A DNA stretch of 64,000 nt from an uncultured virus (IMG/VR IMGVR_UViG_3300013004_000031). Its lineage: Duplodnaviria > Heunggongvirae > Uroviricota > Caudoviricetes. Shown in pieces: positions 3,586 through 59,997 of the stretch (position 1 is its first letter; every line of letters starts with the position of its first letter). The stretch is taken from positions 1 through 64,000 of the IMG/VR virus record IMGVR_UViG_3300013004_000031; one strand, given 5' to 3'. The position numbers and the translations under genes were made by a program. The notes under the pieces are model-generated. The model was not told where the DNA came from. It saw only the letters and a list, made by a program, of their open reading frames with translations, and made no database searches.

Positions 3586-4002
3586 ATGGCTAATAAATTC
3601 CACGCTAAATTCCTCAAAATTCTCCAAGAAGCTCCCCAACTTGACATTGATCCTGATTTGGAGAGAGGTGCTGCTGAGATGTCCCTAGACGATGATGTTG
3701 CCATGGATGATTATGATGTGGACATGGAAGTTGATCCATCCGCTGTGGATGAGATTGGGGATGCCATGGCTCGCCAGAATGAGCAAATGGTTGGTGTTGT
3801 TGATAAATGGAATTCAAATATTGATAAGTTCCTTGGTTATCTCAATGGTGATCAGCCAAACAGTATTCAGAGTGTTCTGGCTACCGCCAATCCTGAGTCG
3901 ATGTTGGGTAATTTGAAGAACCAACAAGTGAAAATTGGTCGCATTGCTTCCGATCTTGCTGCCCTTCAACAGTCGTTTATGACTGCGAAGAAGTCTCAGT
4001 GA
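3586..4002 (+). CDS. Acidic hypothetical protein, candidate virion-internal protein
   Basis: TAAATA-ctatc-ATG; N-terminus MANKFHAKFLKILQE. Confidence 0.7.
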   Translation: MANKFHAKFLKILQEAPQLDIDPDLERGAAEMSLDDDVAMDDYDVDMEVDPSAVDEIGDAMARQNEQMVGVVDKWNSNIDKFLGYLNGDQPNSIQSVLATANPESMLGNLKNQQVKIGRIASDLAALQQSFMTAKKSQ

Positions 4003-5124
4003 TTATTTGATTAATTTCATTTTTACCGTAGCTGCCAAACCCTTGCAGCTATTTTTCACGATTAAATCCGTGGGATATTCATCCATGCCATAAGCCATAC
4101 ACACAGCATTCAGGTCTTTGAACTTTTTTCCATCATATTCTGGCCAGATGAAGACCTTTTCTCCCATATCAATCAGCTTTAGGGTCTTCTCCCGTGCTGT
4201 TTTATCGATCCACTGGCTATCCAATACCCAAATCCTCTCAAAGAACTTCAAACCATCCATCTGTTCCTGTTGATACGATGTGAAAAGCTGATCACCCTTG
4301 GTAATACCCCCAATACCAAGCCCATTGTTCACAAAACAAGCATCCAGTGGTCCTTCTATGATGAATACCTTATCCAAATCGGATGATATGCGCTCAATTC
4401 CAAACACACTCTTATCTCCCCCATCTTTTGATAGGTAAGAAGGGGATTCGTCATCCACCAATCGTCGGCTCTGGTAATAAACAATCTTCCCGTTCTCATC
4501 CTTGAAAGGTATCACCAGACGCTTATCATGCTTTTCATCCTTCAAAGAGATGTAGAAGGCATCTGGACGGTTCACAGCGGTATCCAATCGCCTTTCCTTG
4601 ATGTAAGCCAGAGCTTTTTGGACGATCTTGTTATTCTTGTAGTAATCGGTCTGATTCTTATCAAATAGATTGATACTATCCATCGGTAAGGATGCTGATT
4701 TGGGTTTTTCCTGTTTTTCTTCCATATCCATGACATTAATCATCCCATAATTACCTTTCTCAATCTCATCCACCATCTGATTGAAGGACAATCCCGACAC
4801 TTCCTTGATCCATTTGTAAGGCTTGGATGACCAGCCGCAATTGTGGCAAAATATGTTGTCATTTTCGGGAATGTAGAAGCATCGTTTCTTTGATCCCCAA
4901 CTTTTACCTTCCCGGCATATGGGACAACAGCAATTATAATTACCATTATGGCTGTTAAAAGAAACTTTATATCCATATTCGTAAAATTTGGACACCACAT
5001 AATCAGTGGGAAACTCAATGATCCTCTTTTGCAAGGACTTCGTATTGGGCTTGGACAACGCGGCGGATATTTTTTGGGAGATGTTCAACGAATTCAATAA
5101 TCTCATGTTCTTTGGCAAAGTCAA
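4003..5124 (-). CDS. 61: DNA primase (T4 gp61-like)
   Basis: Zinc finger CPIC...CHNC, RLVIPF..YYQSR, TOPRIM IIEGPLDA, and KDLN. The start codon is uncertain. Confidence 0.92.
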   Translation of the reverse strand: MTLPKNMRLLNSLNISQKISAALSKPNTKSLQKRIIEFPTDYVVSKFYEYGYKVSFNSHNGNYNCCCPICREGKSWGSKKRCFYIPENDNIFCHNCGWSSKPYKWIKEVSGLSFNQMVDEIEKGNYGMINVMDMEEKQEKPKSASLPMDSINLFDKNQTDYYKNNKIVQKALAYIKERRLDTAVNRPDAFYISLKDEKHDKRLVIPFKDENGKIVYYQSRRLVDDESPSYLSKDGGDKSVFGIERISSDLDKVFIIEGPLDACFVNNGLGIGGITKGDQLFTSYQQEQMDGLKFFERIWVLDSQWIDKTAREKTLKLIDMGEKVFIWPEYDGKKFKDLNAVCMAYGMDEYPTDLIVKNSCKGLAATVKMKLIK

Positions 5125-12784: not shown

Positions 12785-13215
12785 TGTTCCAAGAGTTCTG
12801 GATTTTCAAATATATTACCACACACCACCCAATATGTCCAGTCGCATAAATTTACAAAATTATCATGCAGTGGAGATGGCGATCCATGTAAATTATTGAC
12901 ATTGTTATGGACGAAACAACATTCTTTATCATTCCAACCAACCACAATTTTACAAAAAGACCCATTACCCACCCTCTCAAGGATATCCCCATCATAAATC
13001 TCTTTGTTGTTTTTGTCTATCAATCCAGTGAATTGTTGAAGAACGTAATCATCGGAACAATCAACATCTCCACAATGTTTAAAATCTCCACGCAACTTGC
13101 CGTTCAATTGTAAATAGAATTTTTCAGCATATTCTCCATTCATTATCGGAGTCGAAGATGGGTAAAACATCTCTTTATATAGAATATTCCAAATCCTGAA
13201 TTTTATATCTCTCAT
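12781..13215 (-). CDS. YopX family protein
   Basis: MRDIKFRIW...QFTGLIDKNNKEIYDGDI...GNIFENPELL. Confidence 0.9.
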   Translation of the reverse strand: MRDIKFRIWNILYKEMFYPSSTPIMNGEYAEKFYLQLNGKLRGDFKHCGDVDCSDDYVLQQFTGLIDKNNKEIYDGDILERVGNGSFCKIVVGWNDKECCFVHNNVNNLHGSPSPLHDNFVNLCDWTYWVVCGNIFENPELLEQ

Positions 13216-13499
13216 TTCTTTTTAACTTTTTTCTGCTCGGAACGAACATACTTGGTGACAAATTTACTCTTCGAAATTGTGCTGTCTTGATCCAAAAACA
13301 CCTTAACAAGCTCCTGATCAGAGTCAAGGGACAATATCGTTTTCAGGATCGTTTTCAGCTTCTCCTCTTGGAGAGTTGTCACGAAAACGTTCTGGATGGA
13401 TAATTTCTTACCTTTGATGTTATTTACGAAAGTGCAATAACAGAGAAATAAGTGGTTCTGTTCATTTTCTATTATATTTGAGGAGGGGTCGTATATCAT
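13212..13499 (-). CDS. Hypothetical protein; its 5' ~29 codons lie inside the TnpB cassette (recoded copy)
   Basis: The N-terminus MIYDPSSNIIENEQNHLFLCYCTFVNNIKG is paralogous to the truncated ORF at 14941. Confidence 0.8.
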   Translation of the reverse strand: MIYDPSSNIIENEQNHLFLCYCTFVNNIKGKKLSIQNVFVTTLQEEKLKTILKTILSLDSDQELVKVFLDQDSTISKSKFVTKYVRSEQKKVKKK

Positions 13500-13501
13500 A
13501 A

Positions 13502-13549
13502 TTAAATTGCGTGGGGTTGTTCGATAGATGAATCAAATAGGCGTTTCAT
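13502..13549 (-). CDS. Putative 15-aa leader ORF (MKRLFDSSIEQPHAI)
   Basis: ATG lies 6 nt after the TATAGT -10 element; the stop lies 2 nt before the ATG of the 13212-13499 gene. Confidence 0.35.
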   Translation of the reverse strand: MKRLFDSSIEQPHAI

Positions 13550-13555
13550 ATATAT

Positions 13556-13583
13556 ACTATAATCTATTTTTCACCGAAGTCAA
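13556..13583 (-). promoter_or_regulatory. Sigma70-like promoter inside the TnpB cassette, facing the rescued gene
   Basis: TTGACT-16 nt-TATAGT. Confidence 0.65.
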
Positions 13584-13633
13584 ATTAAATTACGATATTT
13601 CATAAAATATTAAGAAAAAGACTAAATAATAAC

Positions 13634-14851
13634 ATAGAAGAGGAAATTACATACCAAGCTTTCAAATTCAGAATCTATCCGTTAGATTCTCAGAAGGAAT
13701 TACTAGCAAAGCATTTTGGATGCTCTCGATTTATTTATAATTATTTTCTAAAAGAGAAACAAGATCATTATTTGAATAATGGCAAAACTTTAAATTATAA
13801 TTATTGTTGTTCTGGTGTTAAAAAATTAAAAGACTCTGATGAATATTCATGGCTCAAAAAAGTCAATTCACAAACACTACAACAATCTTTAAAAAATCTT
13901 GAGACTGCGTATGGCAATTTTTTCCGTAAGAAATCTAAATTTCCAAAATTTAAAAAGAAATCAAACCAACAATCATTTGGGGTTTGCCAAGGAGTTAAAA
14001 TAAAAAATAATAATAAATTACAAATTTATAAATTTAAAGAAGGAATACCGATTCATCTCCATCGTAAATTGGAAGGAAAAATCAAATCAGCAACAATTTC
14101 CAAAACGCCCACCGATAAATATTTTGCTTCCATCCTTTGTGAAGTCCCCAAGAAATCTAAACCAAAGACTGGTAAGACTTTGGGTATTGACTTGGGTATT
14201 ACAGATTTCATAGTAACAAGCGATGGGGAGAAAGTAAAAAATCCCAAATTCAATCATTCTTTAAAACAAAAGCTTTCAAAAGCTCAAAAACATTTAAGTA
14301 GGAAAACGAAAGGTAGCAATAGATACAAAAGACAAAGAAAAAAAGTAGCGAGAATCCACGAGAAGATAACCAATTCTCGGAAGGATTTCCAACACAAATT
14401 AAGCACTCGTTTGATTAACGAGTATGATATGATTTCTTTAGAATCTCTGGCTGTTAAGAACATGATTAAGAATGTAAATCTTTCTTATAGTATTCAAGAT
14501 AGCTCTTGGAGTTCTTTTATATCAATGTTGGAATATAAAGCCAAGTGGTATGGTAAGGAGATTAGGAAGATTGATAGATGGTATCCTAGTTCCAAGACCT
14601 GCCATAAGTGTGATTATATTATCGATAAGCTACCTTTGTCAGTGAGGCGTTGGATATGTCCCAAGTGTGGTGAGAACCATGACAGGGACATCAACGCCGC
14701 AAAAAACATTCATCGTCAGGGATTGGCGATTACAGATGTGGAGATGGAAGCTCTGGTTGCCAGCAATGGCGACGAAACTACTGTCTGTGAAGCGTCTAAA
14801 AAGAAGTCTTATAGACTAAGACTGAAGCCGCTGGGTCTTGCCCATCGGTAG
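13634..14851 (+). CDS. tnpB: TnpB RNA-guided endonuclease
   Basis: HTH (AFKFRIYP..Q...FG.SRF.YN) lies upstream of the track start. RuvC-I GIDLG, RuvC-II SLESL, zinc finger CHKC/CPKC and RuvC-III DRDINAA are present. There is no in-frame ATG; ATA at 13634 is the likely start. Confidence 0.93.
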   Translation: MEEEITYQAFKFRIYPLDSQKELLAKHFGCSRFIYNYFLKEKQDHYLNNGKTLNYNYCCSGVKKLKDSDEYSWLKKVNSQTLQQSLKNLETAYGNFFRKKSKFPKFKKKSNQQSFGVCQGVKIKNNNKLQIYKFKEGIPIHLHRKLEGKIKSATISKTPTDKYFASILCEVPKKSKPKTGKTLGIDLGITDFIVTSDGEKVKNPKFNHSLKQKLSKAQKHLSRKTKGSNRYKRQRKKVARIHEKITNSRKDFQHKLSTRLINEYDMISLESLAVKNMIKNVNLSYSIQDSSWSSFISMLEYKAKWYGKEIRKIDRWYPSSKTCHKCDYIIDKLPLSVRRWICPKCGENHDRDINAAKNIHRQGLAITDVEMEALVASNGDETTVCEASKKKSYRLRLKPLGLAHR

Positions 14852-14876
14852 TTCACCTTTGAGATGGTTCACGAAG
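14725..14876 (+). ncRNA. Putative omegaRNA (reRNA) scaffold plus ~20-nt guide
   Basis: Hairpins GTTGCCA-GCAA-TGGCGAC, AGTCT-TAT-AGACT and CCGcTGGG-TCTTG-CCCAtCGG, then GTTCAC. The guide would be CTTTGAGATGGTTCACGAAG. The 5' end is approximate. Confidence 0.65.
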
Positions 14877-14941
14877 GAACAATAACAAATGAATAAGTGA
14901 TCGCTCTCGCTTTCTATAATTGCAGATGAAGGATTGCTCAT
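14816..14941 (-). pseudogene. Truncated original 5' end of the gene interrupted by the TnpB cassette
   Basis: MSNPSSAIIESESDHLFICYCSFVNHLKG, then runs into element sequence and stops. It is ATGA-coupled to the upstream gene. Confidence 0.8.
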
Positions 14942-30402: not shown

Positions 30403-31275
30403 TCAATTGTTTATTCTTCTAGTAATCCCACCTTCTTTTTCAAGTTCAATAATTGATCCCGTGACTTGTTTCAATATTTCCTTTCTATGGGAAATTGCAT
30501 AAACAGCCAAATCGTTCTTTTCAATTCTTTTTTTGACGAGTTCTACCAATAAATCAAACCCCCTCTCATCAAACGCCGCGTCAAAAACCTCATCTATCCA
30601 TTCCACGTTAGATGACACTCCTGAAATCTTCCTTTTCAAATCCTTGAATGCCCATGCACACGCGAGATCGACAGTTCTGCGTTCTCCACCGCTCAGATTC
30701 CAGTAAGAAATTTCCTTGCCCTTGTCATTGGAAAGCTGTTCATCAAAGTATTCATCGAATTTACAACGAATGGACATACCAAGATCATTAATATATTGCT
30801 GGATACTTGCGTTCATCATGGAAAGGAGTCTCTTCACCACAAAGCTACGGACACCTTCTTCTCCCAGAACGAATTTACACACCTCATAATCTTCCGATTT
30901 CTGCTTGAGCAATAGGAAATTATCACGTTCCGTGTCATATCTCTCCTGCGTCTTGATGATATTCTCCTCAAAAGCTGGTTTGGGTAATTCATCCAACTTC
31001 AAATTATCCAGAGATTCCTTGTATTGTTTGAGACTAATTTCCAGACCTTCCAATTTCTGCTTGGTGACTTTAGCTTCGTTGATTTGGTCTTGAAATTCAG
31101 CTACCTTTTGTTGAACCTTTTCTTTTTTGGAATGAAATTGGGATTTATCTTCCTTCAATTTATCAATTTCCTCAACAATATTATCCAATTCGGATTGATA
31201 TTGCTCCTTCATTTTCTCCAGATGTTCCACATGTGTATGGGGAATTTCTTGAAGGCACTTGTCACATTTAATCAT
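30403..31275 (-). CDS. 46: gp46/Rad50-like ATPase, C-terminal half (zinc hook, signature, Walker B)
   Basis: Starts MIKCDKC; coiled coil; LSGGE, IDEVFD and ISH. Confidence 0.9.
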   Translation of the reverse strand: MIKCDKCLQEIPHTHVEHLEKMKEQYQSELDNIVEEIDKLKEDKSQFHSKKEKVQQKVAEFQDQINEAKVTKQKLEGLEISLKQYKESLDNLKLDELPKPAFEENIIKTQERYDTERDNFLLLKQKSEDYEVCKFVLGEEGVRSFVVKRLLSMMNASIQQYINDLGMSIRCKFDEYFDEQLSNDKGKEISYWNLSGGERRTVDLACAWAFKDLKRKISGVSSNVEWIDEVFDAAFDERGFDLLVELVKKRIEKNDLAVYAISHRKEILKQVTGSIIELEKEGGITRRINN

Positions 31276-31576
31276 TTTTCAAAATTTCGTTTAAATCTTT
31301 TCTCTCCGTTTTGCATATAGCAAAAACACGATCAATCATTCTATTAGCGTTAGGTAACAATTTATAGGTTTTAAATTTATTCAACAAATCATATAATTTA
31401 GACATTCTAATATAATCACCATCAGATTTTTCATTATCTAAAACATTTAGAAAATCTTCAATAGATGTCAACTTACCCCAATCCAATGAATAAGGAATTT
31501 GTGTAAAATGAGATTGATGGTTTATCCAGTGTTCAACCCTACTTTTTTCAATAACGAATATTGGTTGTTTTTTCAT
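31268..31576 (-). CDS. 102-aa hypothetical ORF inserted between the two gp46 halves
   Basis: Start and stop overlap both halves; AT-rich; different reading frame. Confidence 0.7.
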   Translation of the reverse strand: MKKQPIFVIEKSRVEHWINHQSHFTQIPYSLDWGKLTSIEDFLNVLDNEKSDGDYIRMSKLYDLLNKFKTYKLLPNANRMIDRVFAICKTERKDLNEILKND

Positions 31577-32490
31577 ATCACTTTCTCAATTTGTTCAATT
31601 TCTTTCACCTTCAGCTTCCTCAAAGTCTCCTTGGAAGAGATTTCGTTATTCACATGACCGATCTTTCCATCCAGCTTTCTCCAAGCATCATCCCACTTCT
31701 CTTTCTCCGTTTGGATGGTAGAAATATCCATAATAGATGTTTTAGCAATCTTTTCAGATGTTTCATCAATCTTTTCCTGAATTTCTTTGCGCTTTTGATC
31801 AAGAATCGCTTCCCGCTCTTGGACTTTCTTCAAATAATCTTCTTGCTGCTTGTTTAGGGTTTCCAATGTGTTATTGATTTCTTCCAACTTGGCAGAAGAA
31901 ATGTTCATCTCCCCTTTATTATCACGAATCAAAGTCTTCAATTCGTTGCTCATCTTACCAAAGACTTCCAGAGAGAAAATGTCATTGATGAACTTGCGCT
32001 TCTCTTCAGGTTTCTTTGCCATGAATGGGATGTTATCCGAAAGAGATAAAATATCACAACTACGACAAATCACAGGATTGGAACCGATCAAATCACAGAT
32101 GAATTTGTCGGTGTTGGCAATGGAATCCTTGGTGATGTCTTCCTCGCATCTCAGAAGCGTCACAGTGCTTGGTTTGACTTGCCGCTTTATCGTGTATGTC
32201 TGAACGTCTTGCTCCGTCTCTACGTCGAACGTAAGCTCAATGGCACCCTTTCCTTTGGTGATGTTGTTGATGATGAAATCCTTTTTAATTTCACGGATGG
32301 TTTTACCGAATAATGCGAAATAGAAAAGTTCGGCCATAACTGATTTTCCAATACCGTTCACACGATCTGGATTATCAATATTCCTACCAGTGATCAGATT
32401 AAATCCTGATTGGAAGTCAACCGATATTTGGTCATTTCCCACACTGAGGAAATTTTGACCTTTTAAATTTTTATAAATTATTCGTCTCAT
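31573..32490 (-). CDS. 46: gp46/Rad50-like ATPase, N-terminal half
   Basis: NFLSVG, Walker A NGIGKS, ALFGK and a coiled coil; ends just before the hook. Confidence 0.9.
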   Translation of the reverse strand: MRRIIYKNLKGQNFLSVGNDQISVDFQSGFNLITGRNIDNPDRVNGIGKSVMAELFYFALFGKTIREIKKDFIINNITKGKGAIELTFDVETEQDVQTYTIKRQVKPSTVTLLRCEEDITKDSIANTDKFICDLIGSNPVICRSCDILSLSDNIPFMAKKPEEKRKFINDIFSLEVFGKMSNELKTLIRDNKGEMNISSAKLEEINNTLETLNKQQEDYLKKVQEREAILDQKRKEIQEKIDETSEKIAKTSIMDISTIQTEKEKWDDAWRKLDGKIGHVNNEISSKETLRKLKVKEIEQIEKVI

Positions 32491-42466: not shown

Positions 42467-43213
42467 ATGGCAATTAAAAATGCTCCGAAAGGAAAACGCC
42501 GGGAAGTCAATTTAGTAGATGTTGAAAGTGCTATCGCCAATAGCTACAATAAGATTGACTTCAAATTTAAAAACAGAGCTTTCAAATTAACCGACAAACA
42601 AAAAGAGTTGGTTTCAATTATAAACGATCCAAATACTAAGGTTGTTATAATTCAAGGCCCAGCCGGAACTGGAAAATCTTGGACATCTATTTATTGTGGA
42701 TTGACGTTGATTAAAGAACAAAGATTTGAAAAGCTTCTTTATGTGAGAGCCATGGTTGAAAGTGCTTCCAAATCCATGGGATATCTTCCGGGGTCAGAAG
42801 CAGACAAGACATTACCATTTAATGCTGTAGCTTTTGAGTTGATAAATAAGCTGGTAGAAGATAAGGATTTACCTAAAATTCAAAAAGCTGGTATCATCGA
42901 AACTATGCCAGTAAACCACGCTAGAGGACACACATGGGATAATATGTTTGTTTTAGTTGATGAAACGCAGCAAATGGAAACCAAGGAAATTCTTACGGTT
43001 GCTAGTAGGCTGGGGGAGAATAGCATTATGGTCTTAGCTGGAGATCACATGCAACCAGATATCCAGAGGAGTGGTTTTCAGGCTGTTTATAATGCCTTCA
43101 ACGATCAAGAATCCATTGATAATGGTATCAGGACATTTGAATTTACGGAAGATGATATCGTAAGGTCAAAAATTCTCAAATTCATCGTCAAGAAATTTAA
43201 GACAATTTCTTAA
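42467..43213 (+). CDS. phoH: PhoH-family ATPase
   Basis: GPAGTGKS, GYLPG, RG.T, VDETQ, GD..Q.D and DIVRS. Confidence 0.93.
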   Translation: MAIKNAPKGKRREVNLVDVESAIANSYNKIDFKFKNRAFKLTDKQKELVSIINDPNTKVVIIQGPAGTGKSWTSIYCGLTLIKEQRFEKLLYVRAMVESASKSMGYLPGSEADKTLPFNAVAFELINKLVEDKDLPKIQKAGIIETMPVNHARGHTWDNMFVLVDETQQMETKEILTVASRLGENSIMVLAGDHMQPDIQRSGFQAVYNAFNDQESIDNGIRTFEFTEDDIVRSKILKFIVKKFKTIS

Positions 43214-44465
43214 AATTTTTAACAGAATATGTTATCAGCCTATTCCAAAAATCCAATCCTTCAGGATGATGTCTTTCAATTATCAATCTGAGAGTCTTCA
43301 TTAAAACATTTAAATCTTTCATAATTTGATAAACATTTGAATGTTCTGTTATATTTGGTGCTAAAGATTCGTTGAAGATTTCTTCAAAAGTTCTTCCATT
43401 GTTGTTCATTCGTTGTAATCTTTCAGCGTGTTTTTTATTATCACTTTCTTTCTTTTTATATGTCATTTTTTTAATCCTACTCAGATCAAAATTAGGATCA
43501 ATTTGCTCCACTATACTTCTAATATAATGTGGTCGCCAGTTACAATTGGCTAATTGTTGTATTTCTTTAATATTTAAAGGTTTTTCTTTTAAAGCTGGTA
43601 TAATTATTTGTTCACATAACTCTAAATGTGTCATTCCATTGTTAGCATTTCGTTCCATTACTTCACTCTGTCTCGCCTTCCACGCATCAGAAAGTTTGAT
43701 ACCATATCTTGGATTTTTATCACCCTTCACCGATAATTCACCGGATGCGAATTTTTGTTTTCTTTTTTCTTTAGTTCTTTTAATACCCGCATCGTAGATG
43801 TGTGGATTTTCTAATTTTCGGATACGCCTAGTTTCTTTTTGTTTTTCAATTGTTTCTTTTGAATGTTTTTTACCTCTCATAAATGATCTATCGACCAATT
43901 TATTTGATATTCTCATTTTTTTCTTGGTTTCTTCACTATGTTTTCTACCAATCATATTACCAACTCTACCTTTTTTATACTCTTCTGGCATGATAGGTGT
44001 CCATCCTTGTAAAATCATTTCATCATAATGGTTGGGGTCTAATATATTAACATATATAACATTTTCACTCATGTATAATTTTTTATATTTAGGTTTTGCT
44101 TTTTTAAGAGATTCATAAAATCTAGAATTAACATATCGTTGTTCTTGGTGTTTATTTTTTAATCTCATTTGGAAGAAGGCAAAATTCATTTTTTGGTTCT
44201 TAATTTTACAATTAAACATTTTCGTCAGCAAAAGATGTGCTATAAAATGATCTCTTCCGGGTAAAATGACTACGTTATCATCACAAGATAGAATTTCAGG
44301 ATCGACAAATCGTTTAAACGATTTTGGTATGATGTGATGTTTTTCACAATAGACATCATCGGAATATTGAGTTGATAAAGATTTATTTATTATGGTAACA
44401 TACCATTTGACATATTTTGAGTTGTTCGATATTCTTGTTATTTCGTTTAGTATTGATTTGGTCAT
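43197..44465 (-). CDS. Free-standing HNH homing endonuclease with NUMOD3-like repeats
   Basis: EKHHIIPKS...NVV.L..RDHFIAHLLL; GRKHSEETKKKM and GKKHSKETIEK; late motif TAAATA-cttat-ATG. Confidence 0.88.
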   Translation of the reverse strand: MTKSILNEITRISNNSKYVKWYVTIINKSLSTQYSDDVYCEKHHIIPKSFKRFVDPEILSCDDNVVILPGRDHFIAHLLLTKMFNCKIKNQKMNFAFFQMRLKNKHQEQRYVNSRFYESLKKAKPKYKKLYMSENVIYVNILDPNHYDEMILQGWTPIMPEEYKKGRVGNMIGRKHSEETKKKMRISNKLVDRSFMRGKKHSKETIEKQKETRRIRKLENPHIYDAGIKRTKEKRKQKFASGELSVKGDKNPRYGIKLSDAWKARQSEVMERNANNGMTHLELCEQIIIPALKEKPLNIKEIQQLANCNWRPHYIRSIVEQIDPNFDLSRIKKMTYKKKESDNKKHAERLQRMNNNGRTFEEIFNESLAPNITEHSNVYQIMKDLNVLMKTLRLIIERHHPEGLDFWNRLITYSVKNFKKLS

Positions 44466-58203: not shown

Positions 58204-58236
58204 TATCAAAGTCCATTCATGGGACTAAATAATACT

Positions 58237-59997
58237 ATGGGTGGAAAGTATCATAGTAATAAAGATGTTATAGATCATTTCAAAAGAATACACTGTGATA
58301 AATACGATTATTCATTAGTTCATTATACTGGTAATCTAAATTTAGTCGATATCATATGTCAAAAACATGGAGTATTTAAGCAGTCTCCAAAAAAACATAA
58401 AATAGGTCATGGGTGTCATAAGTGTAATACCCAAAGAAAGCGAACTGAAGAGGAGGCAATTGAAGAGTTCAAAATAAAACACGGTAATAAATACGATTAT
58501 TCGGATTTGGAATATAAAAACGGTTCCAGTCTGATTAAAATAGGATGCCCAACTCATGGGTGGTTTTATCAAAAAGCCAGTGAACATAAAATCGGTTATG
58601 GGTGTGCTAAATGTGCCAATCACGAGAAAAGTCCCCCATATGAAGAATGGTTAAATTCGTGTGTTGAAAGACATAATAATTATTATGATTATTCTATTTC
58701 AAAATACGAAACATTGTCTAAATCAGTTAGAATAATTTGCCCAAAACATGGAATTTTCACACAAAAGGCGGGAACACATAGAAATGGTAGTGGTTGTAAA
58801 AAATGTGGGGATGATAGAAAAAGTTTGAAATATCAACAATTATTTACCACGGAATCTTATATAGAAAAGTTAGAAGAAAAACATGGTGATAAGTATGATT
58901 ATAGTAAGGTTAATTATACCACTTTAAAAAATCCTGTCACTCTTACATGTCCCAAACATGGAGACTTTACAAGATTTCCCCAAAATTTATTAAAAGGTGG
59001 TGGATGTGACAAATGTTTAGATGAAATCAGAGTTAAAAAATCTCTAACAAAAGTTAAAAAACATTTTAAACATAATAATTTCGAGTTGGTAATAGATGAA
59101 AGCAAGTTCAAGGGATTCAATAATGAGATATTTTTAACATGTTCAAAGCATGGAGAATTTGTAAGATTTCTTGATATGAATATTTTTGTTTTAAATCATC
59201 CGTGTTTAAAATGTGGGATGAAGATATCAAAATTGGAACAACGAGTGTCCGAAACGTTGGACGATCTTGGAATATCACACATCCAACACACTAGATATAA
59301 AGATGATAACGGTAAAATATACGAAATTGATATATTAACCCCTGATTTGAGTATAGGGTTTGAGATTAACGGACTTAGATATCATGGAGAAGTTATGGGT
59401 AAGGATTCTGACTATCATAGGTGGAAAACCGAAGAATGTTATAAACGAGGTATAAAATTGACACACATTTATGAAAATGAGATTATAGGATCAGACCACT
59501 TCAAACACAAAATTTTCAGAGAATTGGGATTGAGAACCCAAGCAAATGACTCGTGTGTATTTGAATATGTTGGAGATGATTCCATAAATGATTTTATAAT
59601 CAATAATCACCCATTGGGGTTGATGAAAAATTGTATTAATATGGTTTGTTGTAATGATGGAGATATATATGGTTGTATATCGTTTAAAGATAACACTGTA
59701 TTAAGAGTAGCCAATAAACACGATGTTGATATGTCTAAAGTGTTTCAATCTATGATAAGACAGTATATGAATGATCATGAATTAAATACAATAGTAAGTA
59801 ATGTGTTATTTGATTGGGATGATCTTACACTATTTGAAGAATCAGGATTTATCGTCAAAGATACCATCGAACCAGTTTGTTGGAAATTTATCAACGCGAA
59901 ACATGATAAGATTTACACCCACGATGAAGAATTATTGGCTGATAATGTTGATAAATTTTGGGATACTGGTGGATATTTGATGGAATTTTTGATTTAA
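58237..59997 (+). CDS. Putative homing endonuclease (repeated zinc-finger DUF723-like units plus Vsr/Hef-like nuclease domain)
   Basis: About five (H..KYDYS...CPKHG.F...GC.KC) repeats; EIDI...GFEING..YH; late motif TAAATA-atact-ATG. Confidence 0.8.
   Translation: MGGKYHSNKDVIDHFKRIHCDKYDYSLVHYTGNLNLVDIICQKHGVFKQSPKKHKIGHGCHKCNTQRKRTEEEAIEEFKIKHGNKYDYSDLEYKNGSSLIKIGCPTHGWFYQKASEHKIGYGCAKCANHEKSPPYEEWLNSCVERHNNYYDYSISKYETLSKSVRIICPKHGIFTQKAGTHRNGSGCKKCGDDRKSLKYQQLFTTESYIEKLEEKHGDKYDYSKVNYTTLKNPVTLTCPKHGDFTRFPQNLLKGGGCDKCLDEIRVKKSLTKVKKHFKHNNFELVIDESKFKGFNNEIFLTCSKHGEFVRFLDMNIFVLNHPCLKCGMKISKLEQRVSETLDDLGISHIQHTRYKDDNGKIYEIDILTPDLSIGFEINGLRYHGEVMGKDSDYHRWKTEECYKRGIKLTHIYENEIIGSDHFKHKIFRELGLRTQANDSCVFEYVGDDSINDFIINNHPLGLMKNCINMVCCNDGDIYGCISFKDNTVLRVANKHDVDMSKVFQSMIRQYMNDHELNTIVSNVLFDWDDLTLFEESGFIVKDTIEPVCWKFINAKHDKIYTHDEELLADNVDKFWDTGGYLMEFLI

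Follow-up and report, generated by a model that had tools for sequence, protein, structure and literature searches.

At positions 13412-14856 of the window, by which we mean the whole 64,000-nucleotide stretch of DNA analysed here, a TnpB cassette with tnpB on the plus strand interrupts a conserved minus-strand gene, gene X, with the tetranucleotide TTAC directly to its left and the displaced start of gene X directly to its right. The window makes up the first 64 kb of a linear virus record of 121.8 kb (G000, ~60% complete) and encodes T4-type primase, clamp, gp32, helicase, UvsX, polymerase, gp46/47-like nucleases, prohead protease, and major head protein. Runs holding window sequence comprise 24 lake-water metagenomes, each a possible source, and the gp32 is 27-32% identical to cyanophage proteins, with no close relative among named phages; the cassette-bearing virus is a lake-water T4-like phage. 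A second genome, G001 (87% complete), carries an identical cassette. Elsewhere in the window, a gp46/SbcC-like gene (30403-32490) is split into two ORFs (305 and 290 aa) around an unrelated-looking 102-aa ORF that overlaps both. The window also holds two protein-guided homing-endonuclease-like genes, one a PHROG homing endonuclease with NUMOD3 (43197-44465), the other an HNH protein with repeated domains, located between head-closure and protease genes (58219-59997).

The cassette can be read from left to right as a chain of parts of different origin. The native 3' part of gene X (13212..13411, minus strand) ends in TTAC (13408..13411, plus strand), the insertion tetranucleotide and predicted TAM, which also precedes the intact left ends of the related elements L208 and L214. 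It is followed by a foreign replacement for the 5' part of gene X (13412..13499, minus strand), whose first 20 nt on the plus strand form the predicted immune site, and by a mini-ORF of 15 codons (13502..13549, minus strand) that ends 2 bases before the replacement starts. Behind these, in place of tnpA and a left end, a sigma-70-like promoter (TTGACT-16-TATAGT; 13556..13583, minus strand) faces gene X. On the plus strand, a CTAAATA late-promoter-like motif is followed after 5 nt by ATA, the likely tnpB start (13622..13636), and by tnpB of the IS605 group (13634..14851, a 405-codon open frame). Folding and covariation point to an omega/reRNA scaffold and right end (GAAG, hairpin, TTCAC; 14735..14856, plus strand), and the right end, ...GTAGTTCAC, terminates at 14856. 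The predicted guide of ~16-20 nt (14857..14876, plus strand), placed by analogy with ISDra2, lies within the displaced native 5' stub of gene X (14857..14941, minus strand), a possible right homology arm that is nearly identical to the allele of locus L030.

An earlier sequence-only reading had described a phage gene whose start is cut off by the element while still ATGA-coupled upstream, and an intact copy on the other side of tnpB, and both descriptions hold. The stub ORF (14816-14941, minus strand) overlaps the stop of a 229-aa ORF via ATGA; the native start now continues into element sequence and meets a stop after 41 codons, and an intact 95-aa ORF lies at 13212-13499 (minus strand). At both junctions, similarity between the two gene starts ends with the first base of the Gly codon, as that reading had placed the limit of homology, and removing 13412-14856 in silico yields a single open 94-aa frame, in line with its prediction of a restored gene. 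The guide (14857-14876) differs from the resident copy at positions 7, 8, 10, 11, 14, and 20 (6/20), again as proposed. The TAM-anchored duplicate outscored 60/60 shuffled guides, and the resident site is the only one among the 889 TTAC sites of G000 with at most 6 mismatches to the 20-nt guide.

The 222 nt preceding tnpB consist of the gene start, the mini-ORF, and promoter-like sites. The promoter matches 10/12 consensus positions in a weak scan that found 15 such sites against 8.2 expected, and a similar module is present in the related element L209. The mini-ORF is confined to cassette loci; its start resembles a small gene at the equivalent place in L209, and it is possibly the remnant of a small early gene. 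The lack of a visible tnpA, intron, or left-end hairpin, noted in the sequence-only reading, was borne out. No Y1 tnpA was found between 13412 and 14856, nor in G000 (60% complete) or G001 (87% complete), and no group I intron gave an Rfam match at the gathering threshold in the window. No left-end stem-loop of the family type lies upstream of tnpB, while L208, L214, L125, and L139 have a left-end hairpin with its guide tetranucleotide; an AAAG stands 18-21 nt after TTAC, within the replacement, but has no stem, so a hidden left end there was rejected.

Gene X is a conserved gene of 95 aa, flanked by a DHH gene and the gene that precedes gp32, with 196 protein homologs and an all-helical predicted structure (pLDDT 88). 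We found no Pfam, PHROG, or Atlas hit and no GenBank phage match for the family, nothing under E 0.5 in a PDB profile search, and no match in a fold search of the model (best hit VIA, Z 5.1). A gp33/gp59-like identity for gene X and its 209-aa neighbour was considered and received no support from the searches. At two other loci (L014 and L019; ~1240-1512 and ~2122-2394), the start of the DHH gene and the end of the helicase gene are partly duplicated upstream of an intact DHH gene, flanking an insert.

The two parts of the resident gene have different affinities. Its 3' part groups 99/99 with the guide-matching alleles L021, L039, L032, and L033, and the displaced stub differs from the intact L030 allele at only 4 of 85 nt and is 96% identical to L028. 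The replacement 5' part has at most 75% identity to every sampled allele and forms a long branch in the gene-start tree, which was built on 75 nt and is otherwise poorly resolved. The sequence-only reading had called this segment recoded, a term that does not survive comparison: just 2/6 of the changes in the guide window are synonymous, divergence does not peak there (6/20 inside versus 19/52 outside), and the residue pattern also appears in natural homologs, e.g., P0007, P0047, and P0058. The few synonymous changes and the shared residues rule out synonymous recoding and, together with the even divergence, identify the replacement as a captured foreign allele. Window gene X therefore joins a native 3' part to a captured foreign 5' part, and the predicted immunity of the resident copy is a by-product of the foreign origin of the replacement. 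Of the earlier idea that a recoded duplicate rescues the gene in place of splicing, the spare gene start at the DNA level and the missing intron stand, and the recoding falls. The donor of the replacement and mini-ORF was not found among the 245 loci or in G000.

The TnpB protein carries the Pfam domains HTH_OrfB_IS605, OrfB_IS605, and Cas12f1-like_TNB and matches the ISDra2 TnpB structures 8H1J/8BF8 at E 3e-88; the zinc finger and the RuvC residues D186/E270/D352 are intact, and all three residues are invariant in 6 relatives. The gene has no ATG: its frame opens at ATA 13634, five bases past CTAAATA, a point missed in the sequence-only reading. Among the CTAAATA sites of G000, 13/27 have an ATG exactly 5 nt later, and ATA is kept at the tnpB start in close relatives including the autonomous L208. 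We infer that CTAAATA and ATA represent a phage late promoter with a weak start, an arrangement that predates the window cassette, as it is present in L208. The dN/dS of tnpB against its relatives is 0.07-0.17; since the insertion is recent (4/85 stub differences), this value and the intact catalytic residues reflect the family and not the window cassette. Region 14690-14876 folds with z = -3.06, and in 9 relatives 15/34 pairs show two-sided changes alongside an invariant TGAA/TTCA pseudoknot-like pair, in a structure partly derived from the same 9-relative alignment. The right end is nearly identical to that of L208, and the predicted structured RNA scaffold ends at the element boundary.

Empty alleles of gene X exist in related phages, as the sequence-only reading had anticipated. 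Among 45 viral gene X loci, 6 carry the cassette and 39 have one uninterrupted gene with tnpB absent nearby. At four of these 39 (L028-L031), TTAC is followed by 19/20 guide bases, with no mismatch in positions 1-12, which agrees with the proposal that the guide addresses the element-free allele. A further four (L039, L040, L032, and L033) combine TTAC with a single mismatch in positions 1-12, L021 and L022 fit the guide with TTAC absent, and at 31/39 loci TTAC is absent or positions 1-12 hold at least 3 mismatches. Counting the 4 + 4 loci with TTAC and at most one seed mismatch, about a fifth of the tnpB-free loci are plausible targets. ISDra2 TnpB cuts 15-21 bp from the TAM (PMC8612924), and its cleavage is abolished by double mismatches within positions 1-12 (as described in the available portions of PMC13639567). 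If the window TnpB behaves likewise, the resident copy, with 4 mismatches in positions 1-12, should resist cutting, as had been proposed.

The TAM assignment draws on IS608, whose target is TTAC (PMC13565253), and on L208, whose TnpB is 79% identical to that of the window. This close autonomous relative has TTAC, an AAAG and hairpin left end, and Y1 tnpA, and its TTAC left end supports TTAC as the predicted TAM of the window TnpB. It interrupts a gene without any replacement. L214 likewise has AAAG with TTAC; TTAT, in turn, precedes most left ends of the AAAA type. As a separate observation, L208 (reverse strand of the L051/L208 locus) and L209 are related tnpB copies standing back to back in one phage: L208 is autonomous, with left end and Y1 tnpA, and inserted at the fourth codon of a gene, and L209 has small early-promoter gene modules in place of the left end. 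In this pair, both tnpA and tnpB seem to follow CTAAATA and to have non-ATG starts.

Of the six cassette loci, five match the window at 100% along their full length, and L003, the sixth, departs from it only from the DHH gene outward; no second genetic background was found among the six. With carriers so nearly clonal, homing stays inferred and a one-off repair scar is possible. In L003 (1-1275), the DHH gene is another allele (86% to the window), followed by 3962 identical nt; the switch inside the gene may mark the edge of a co-conversion or an ordinary exchange of alleles. In 4 runs holding window sequence, no joint skipping 13412-14856 was seen, and 4 other runs gave one 207-nt contig of L039 type that extends only 7 nt beyond the junction, too short to count. 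A duplicated gene start without tnpB, which had been named as evidence against the homing proposal, is present at 0/39 tnpB-free loci. Regarding the repair genes invoked earlier, UvsX and gp46/47-like proteins are present, and a search for UvsY gave no match, with its control also matching nowhere.

One tnpB-free allele, L023, bears a possible footprint of cutting. Its 30-kb record holds no tnpB, and over 4 kb it has 94.6% identity to L030. Within the 78 bases after the TAM, L023 and L030 differ at 8 positions, all at 7-23, and at 8/8 of them L023 has the base of the resident copy; the opposite flank of the TAM shows 0/160 differences. L023 fully equals the resident copy over positions 1-31 and L030 beyond, so that its gene X (~250-530) holds a patch of 17-31 nt that is the same as the cassette's immune copy in an otherwise L030-type gene. 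A degenerate patch scan of the viral collection returned 6 contigs, namely 5 cassette carriers and L023. Judged by its sequence, the patch spans the seed and the predicted cut zone and looks like a drive-resistance allele. It fits a cut repaired on the resident-copy template, or homing and a later deletion between the stub and the replacement; it could also derive from a third donor under cutting selection, or from plain recombination. Proteins P0016 and P0026 have the same residues as the patch.

A similar layout recurs in other tnpB elements. We fetched 131 distinct elements, of which 68 were analysable and 63 were left out (right end unmatched or flanks too short); the metagenome set was taken from among the matches listed for generic TnpB words, and close relatives are undersampled in it. 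A TAM-like motif with a right-flank duplicate upstream of tnpB, scoring above 60/60 shuffles, was found in 5/68 elements including the window, against about 1/68 expected by chance at p 0.016; L194 and L086 (p 0.03-0.05) were treated as chance. The other cases are thus 4/67: L216, L212, L132, and L210. The clearest, L216, has a TnpB 51% identical to that of the window, TTAT, and a different gene. All eight of its close alleles keep TTAT with 0-1 mismatches in positions 1-12, against 3 in the L216 resident; at seven of them tnpB is absent from the neighbourhood, and the eighth has a near-identical tnpB whose guide is different. By these sequence comparisons L216 is the only recurrence confirmed against empty alleles. 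L132, a cellular-looking metagenome contig, carries a spare 3' end of a GNVR/AAA tyrosine-kinase-like gene. L212 and L210 are weaker, because the L212 duplicate covers only nine coding bases plus leader and the L210 right end is decayed. Loss of the left end without a duplicate is common among relatives (L209, L211, L213, L126, and L217).

Several neighbouring observations accompany this survey. In L132 the spare-gene-end layout (2340-2390 and 3688-3735) sits at the Tyr-rich tail of the gene. L216 and L217/L241 share an upstream gene start to which a near-identical tnpB (94% DNA) is fused; L216 has a duplicate and a guide against that gene, and the L217 guide is unrelated. They are a possible before/after pair for the origin of a cassette. 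In L087, an 86-nt repeat of 83% identity (2857-2940 and 4427-4511) surrounds tnpB and one small gene and is not anchored on the right end.

Taking the observed anatomy, the empty target alleles, the TTAC-type relative, and the hybrid gene together, we lean slightly toward the cassette being a transposase-less IS605 TnpB joined to a foreign gene start, which acts as an RNA-guided homing element that cuts cassette-free alleles of co-infecting relatives and spares its own repaired gene. Under this proposal, an autonomous element resembling L208 would have inserted after TTAC and broken gene X, and recombination with a diverged phage would then have exchanged tnpA and the left end for a promoter and a homologous gene start; beside an active TnpB, only a diverged gene start would survive. 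TnpB, presumably produced late in infection, would take up the right-end RNA and cleave the matching allele 15-21 bp past TTAC. Repair by UvsX/gp46-47 would copy the cassette, using the 3' part of gene X and the 85-nt stub as arms, or, as an alternative outcome, would copy the immune patch alone. The targets L028-L031, the four seed mismatches of the resident, the L023 patch, the four recurrences, and an L208 that combines TTAC, AAAG-hairpin left end, Y1 tnpA, and near-identical right end all favour this proposal, and TnpB can drive TnpA-independent spread among plasmids (PMC11870625; the same point is made in PMC13565253). Set against it are the near-clonal carriers, the 31/39 loci that are not targets, divergence that is not concentrated in the guide window, the recent insertion, the ATA start, a short right arm with L028-L031 lacking the two genes behind the stub, and a patch in L023 that may stem from a third donor, given the residues shared by P0016 and P0026.

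The near-clonal carriers, the uniform divergence of the replacement, the recent insertion, and the ATA start would also fit if an IS605 copy once broke gene X, a single recombination with a diverged phage restored it and took away the left end, and tnpB was stranded without spreading, a history made more credible by how commonly left-end-less tnpB occurs without a duplicate. We still regard such a repair scar as unlikely, since the patch in L023 coincides exactly with the seed and the cut zone, the layout is found again at other, unrelated genes, where a TAM-like motif anchors it, and the seed changes of the L216 resident are missing from 8/8 close alleles. A rather improbable variant is that TnpB breaks gene X of rivals (marker exclusion) and selects immune patches while the cassette seldom moves. 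Free-standing phage endonucleases behave in this way (PMC13565253, PMC2988022), L023 would be such an immune patch without tnpB, and the short right arm and the different upstream genes of the targets also speak for it; homology arms nevertheless flank the site on both sides, and as only a minority of relatives are targets, the benefit of cutting competitors would be limited. Least credible, to the point of being very improbable, is a self-regulatory or non-cutting role in which TnpB binds the resident site and dampens gene X and downstream genes. The resident copy does keep TTAC and the first 6 guide bases, and off-target binding of TnpB is weakly seed-dependent (PMC10055086); yet the 6-nt TAM-proximal match follows from conserved Lys-Gly codons, the catalytic triad is intact, and the guide fits foreign alleles far better.

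Returning to homing with rescue, we tentatively extend it, with a confidence just short of even, to the proposal that phages hold recurrent home-and-rescue drives, in which a TnpB without transposase or left end is paired with a diverged piece of its target gene, spreads in co-infection, and seeds tnpB-free resistance alleles such as L023 via short gene conversion. If true, RNA-guided transposon nucleases could persist within conserved genes by a third means beside excision and splicing, and a transposon accessory could develop into a free-standing homing endonuclease by turning a displaced gene piece into its guide. The cassette would then be nature's analogue of engineered home-and-rescue drives, for which three real alleles are at hand for comparison (target L028, resident, and patched L023), and cassettes of such kind may account for some mosaic genes of T4-like phages.

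Compared with known systems, the cassette shares with IS200/IS605 TnpB (ISDra2; IS608-type) the protein family, the right-end RNA scaffold, the flank-derived guide, and a TAM equal to the insertion motif (PMC8612924, PMC10055086). It has the HTH, RuvC D-E-D, zinc finger, and predicted right-end scaffold of such TnpB-omegaRNA systems and starts 3' of the TAM-like TTAC. Its left boundary, in contrast, is a homolog of the target gene, and without tnpA and left-end hairpin it would not be excised. It is therefore neither a transposable IS605/IS1341 copy, as it has no left-end hairpin, nor an autonomous IS605 element, with Y1 tnpA absent from the element and from the incomplete G000 and G001. Cutting of empty alleles, predicted for the cassette, is common to TnpB homing and plasmid gene drive (PMC10055086, PMC11870625), while the predicted target here lies in other phages, not on a sister chromosome or plasmid copy. 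IStrons, which combine a group I intron with an IS605/IS607 TnpB, are alike in placing a TnpB element in a gene together with a means to keep that gene working (PMC13565253); the cassette is not one of them, with no intron (no Rfam match) in its left part and rescue at the DNA level by a spare gene start. In the available portions of a 2026 review that treats TnpB as a homing endonuclease, four homing types are described, none with a carried replacement (PMC13565253), and we found no published description of this layout in the literature covered, which leaves out most subscription journals and bioRxiv supplements.

The free-standing endonucleases of T4-like phages (Seg, Mob; intronless homing) resemble the cassette in their phage setting, late-promoter-like control, distinction of self from non-self by sequence differences in a conserved neighbour, and recombination-based spread (PMC2988022, PMC13565253). 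Unlike the cassette, they cut hundreds to thousands of bases from their own gene (PMC2988022, PMC13565253), their specificity is protein-coded, and their target, as far as the available portions of PMC2988022 and PMC10448857 describe it, is not partly duplicated. The closest parallel in layout is offered by the "gene hybrids" of fungal mitochondrial mobile endonuclease ORFs (mORFs), known from atp6 of Allomyces macrogynus and from atp6, atp9, cox2, and nad3 of Glomus (PMC3630166). There too, a nuclease gene lies inside a conserved gene, a foreign piece replaces the severed part, and the native piece left behind hardly differs from a close relative's allele (PMC3630166). In the window the native piece is likewise orphaned and the foreign piece is in frame with the rest, at the 5' rather than the 3' end. 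The cassette is not itself a protein-guided mORF, its nuclease being TnpB and not LAGLIDADG or GIY-YIG: the gene hybrids are protein-guided and replace the 3' end (PMC3630166), whereas the RNA-guided TnpB cassette replaces the 5' end and promoter, and its orphaned native piece itself templates the predicted guide. Judged from its sequence organization, the cassette appears to act like TnpB homing and is laid out like a mitochondrial gene hybrid, joining these two known kinds.
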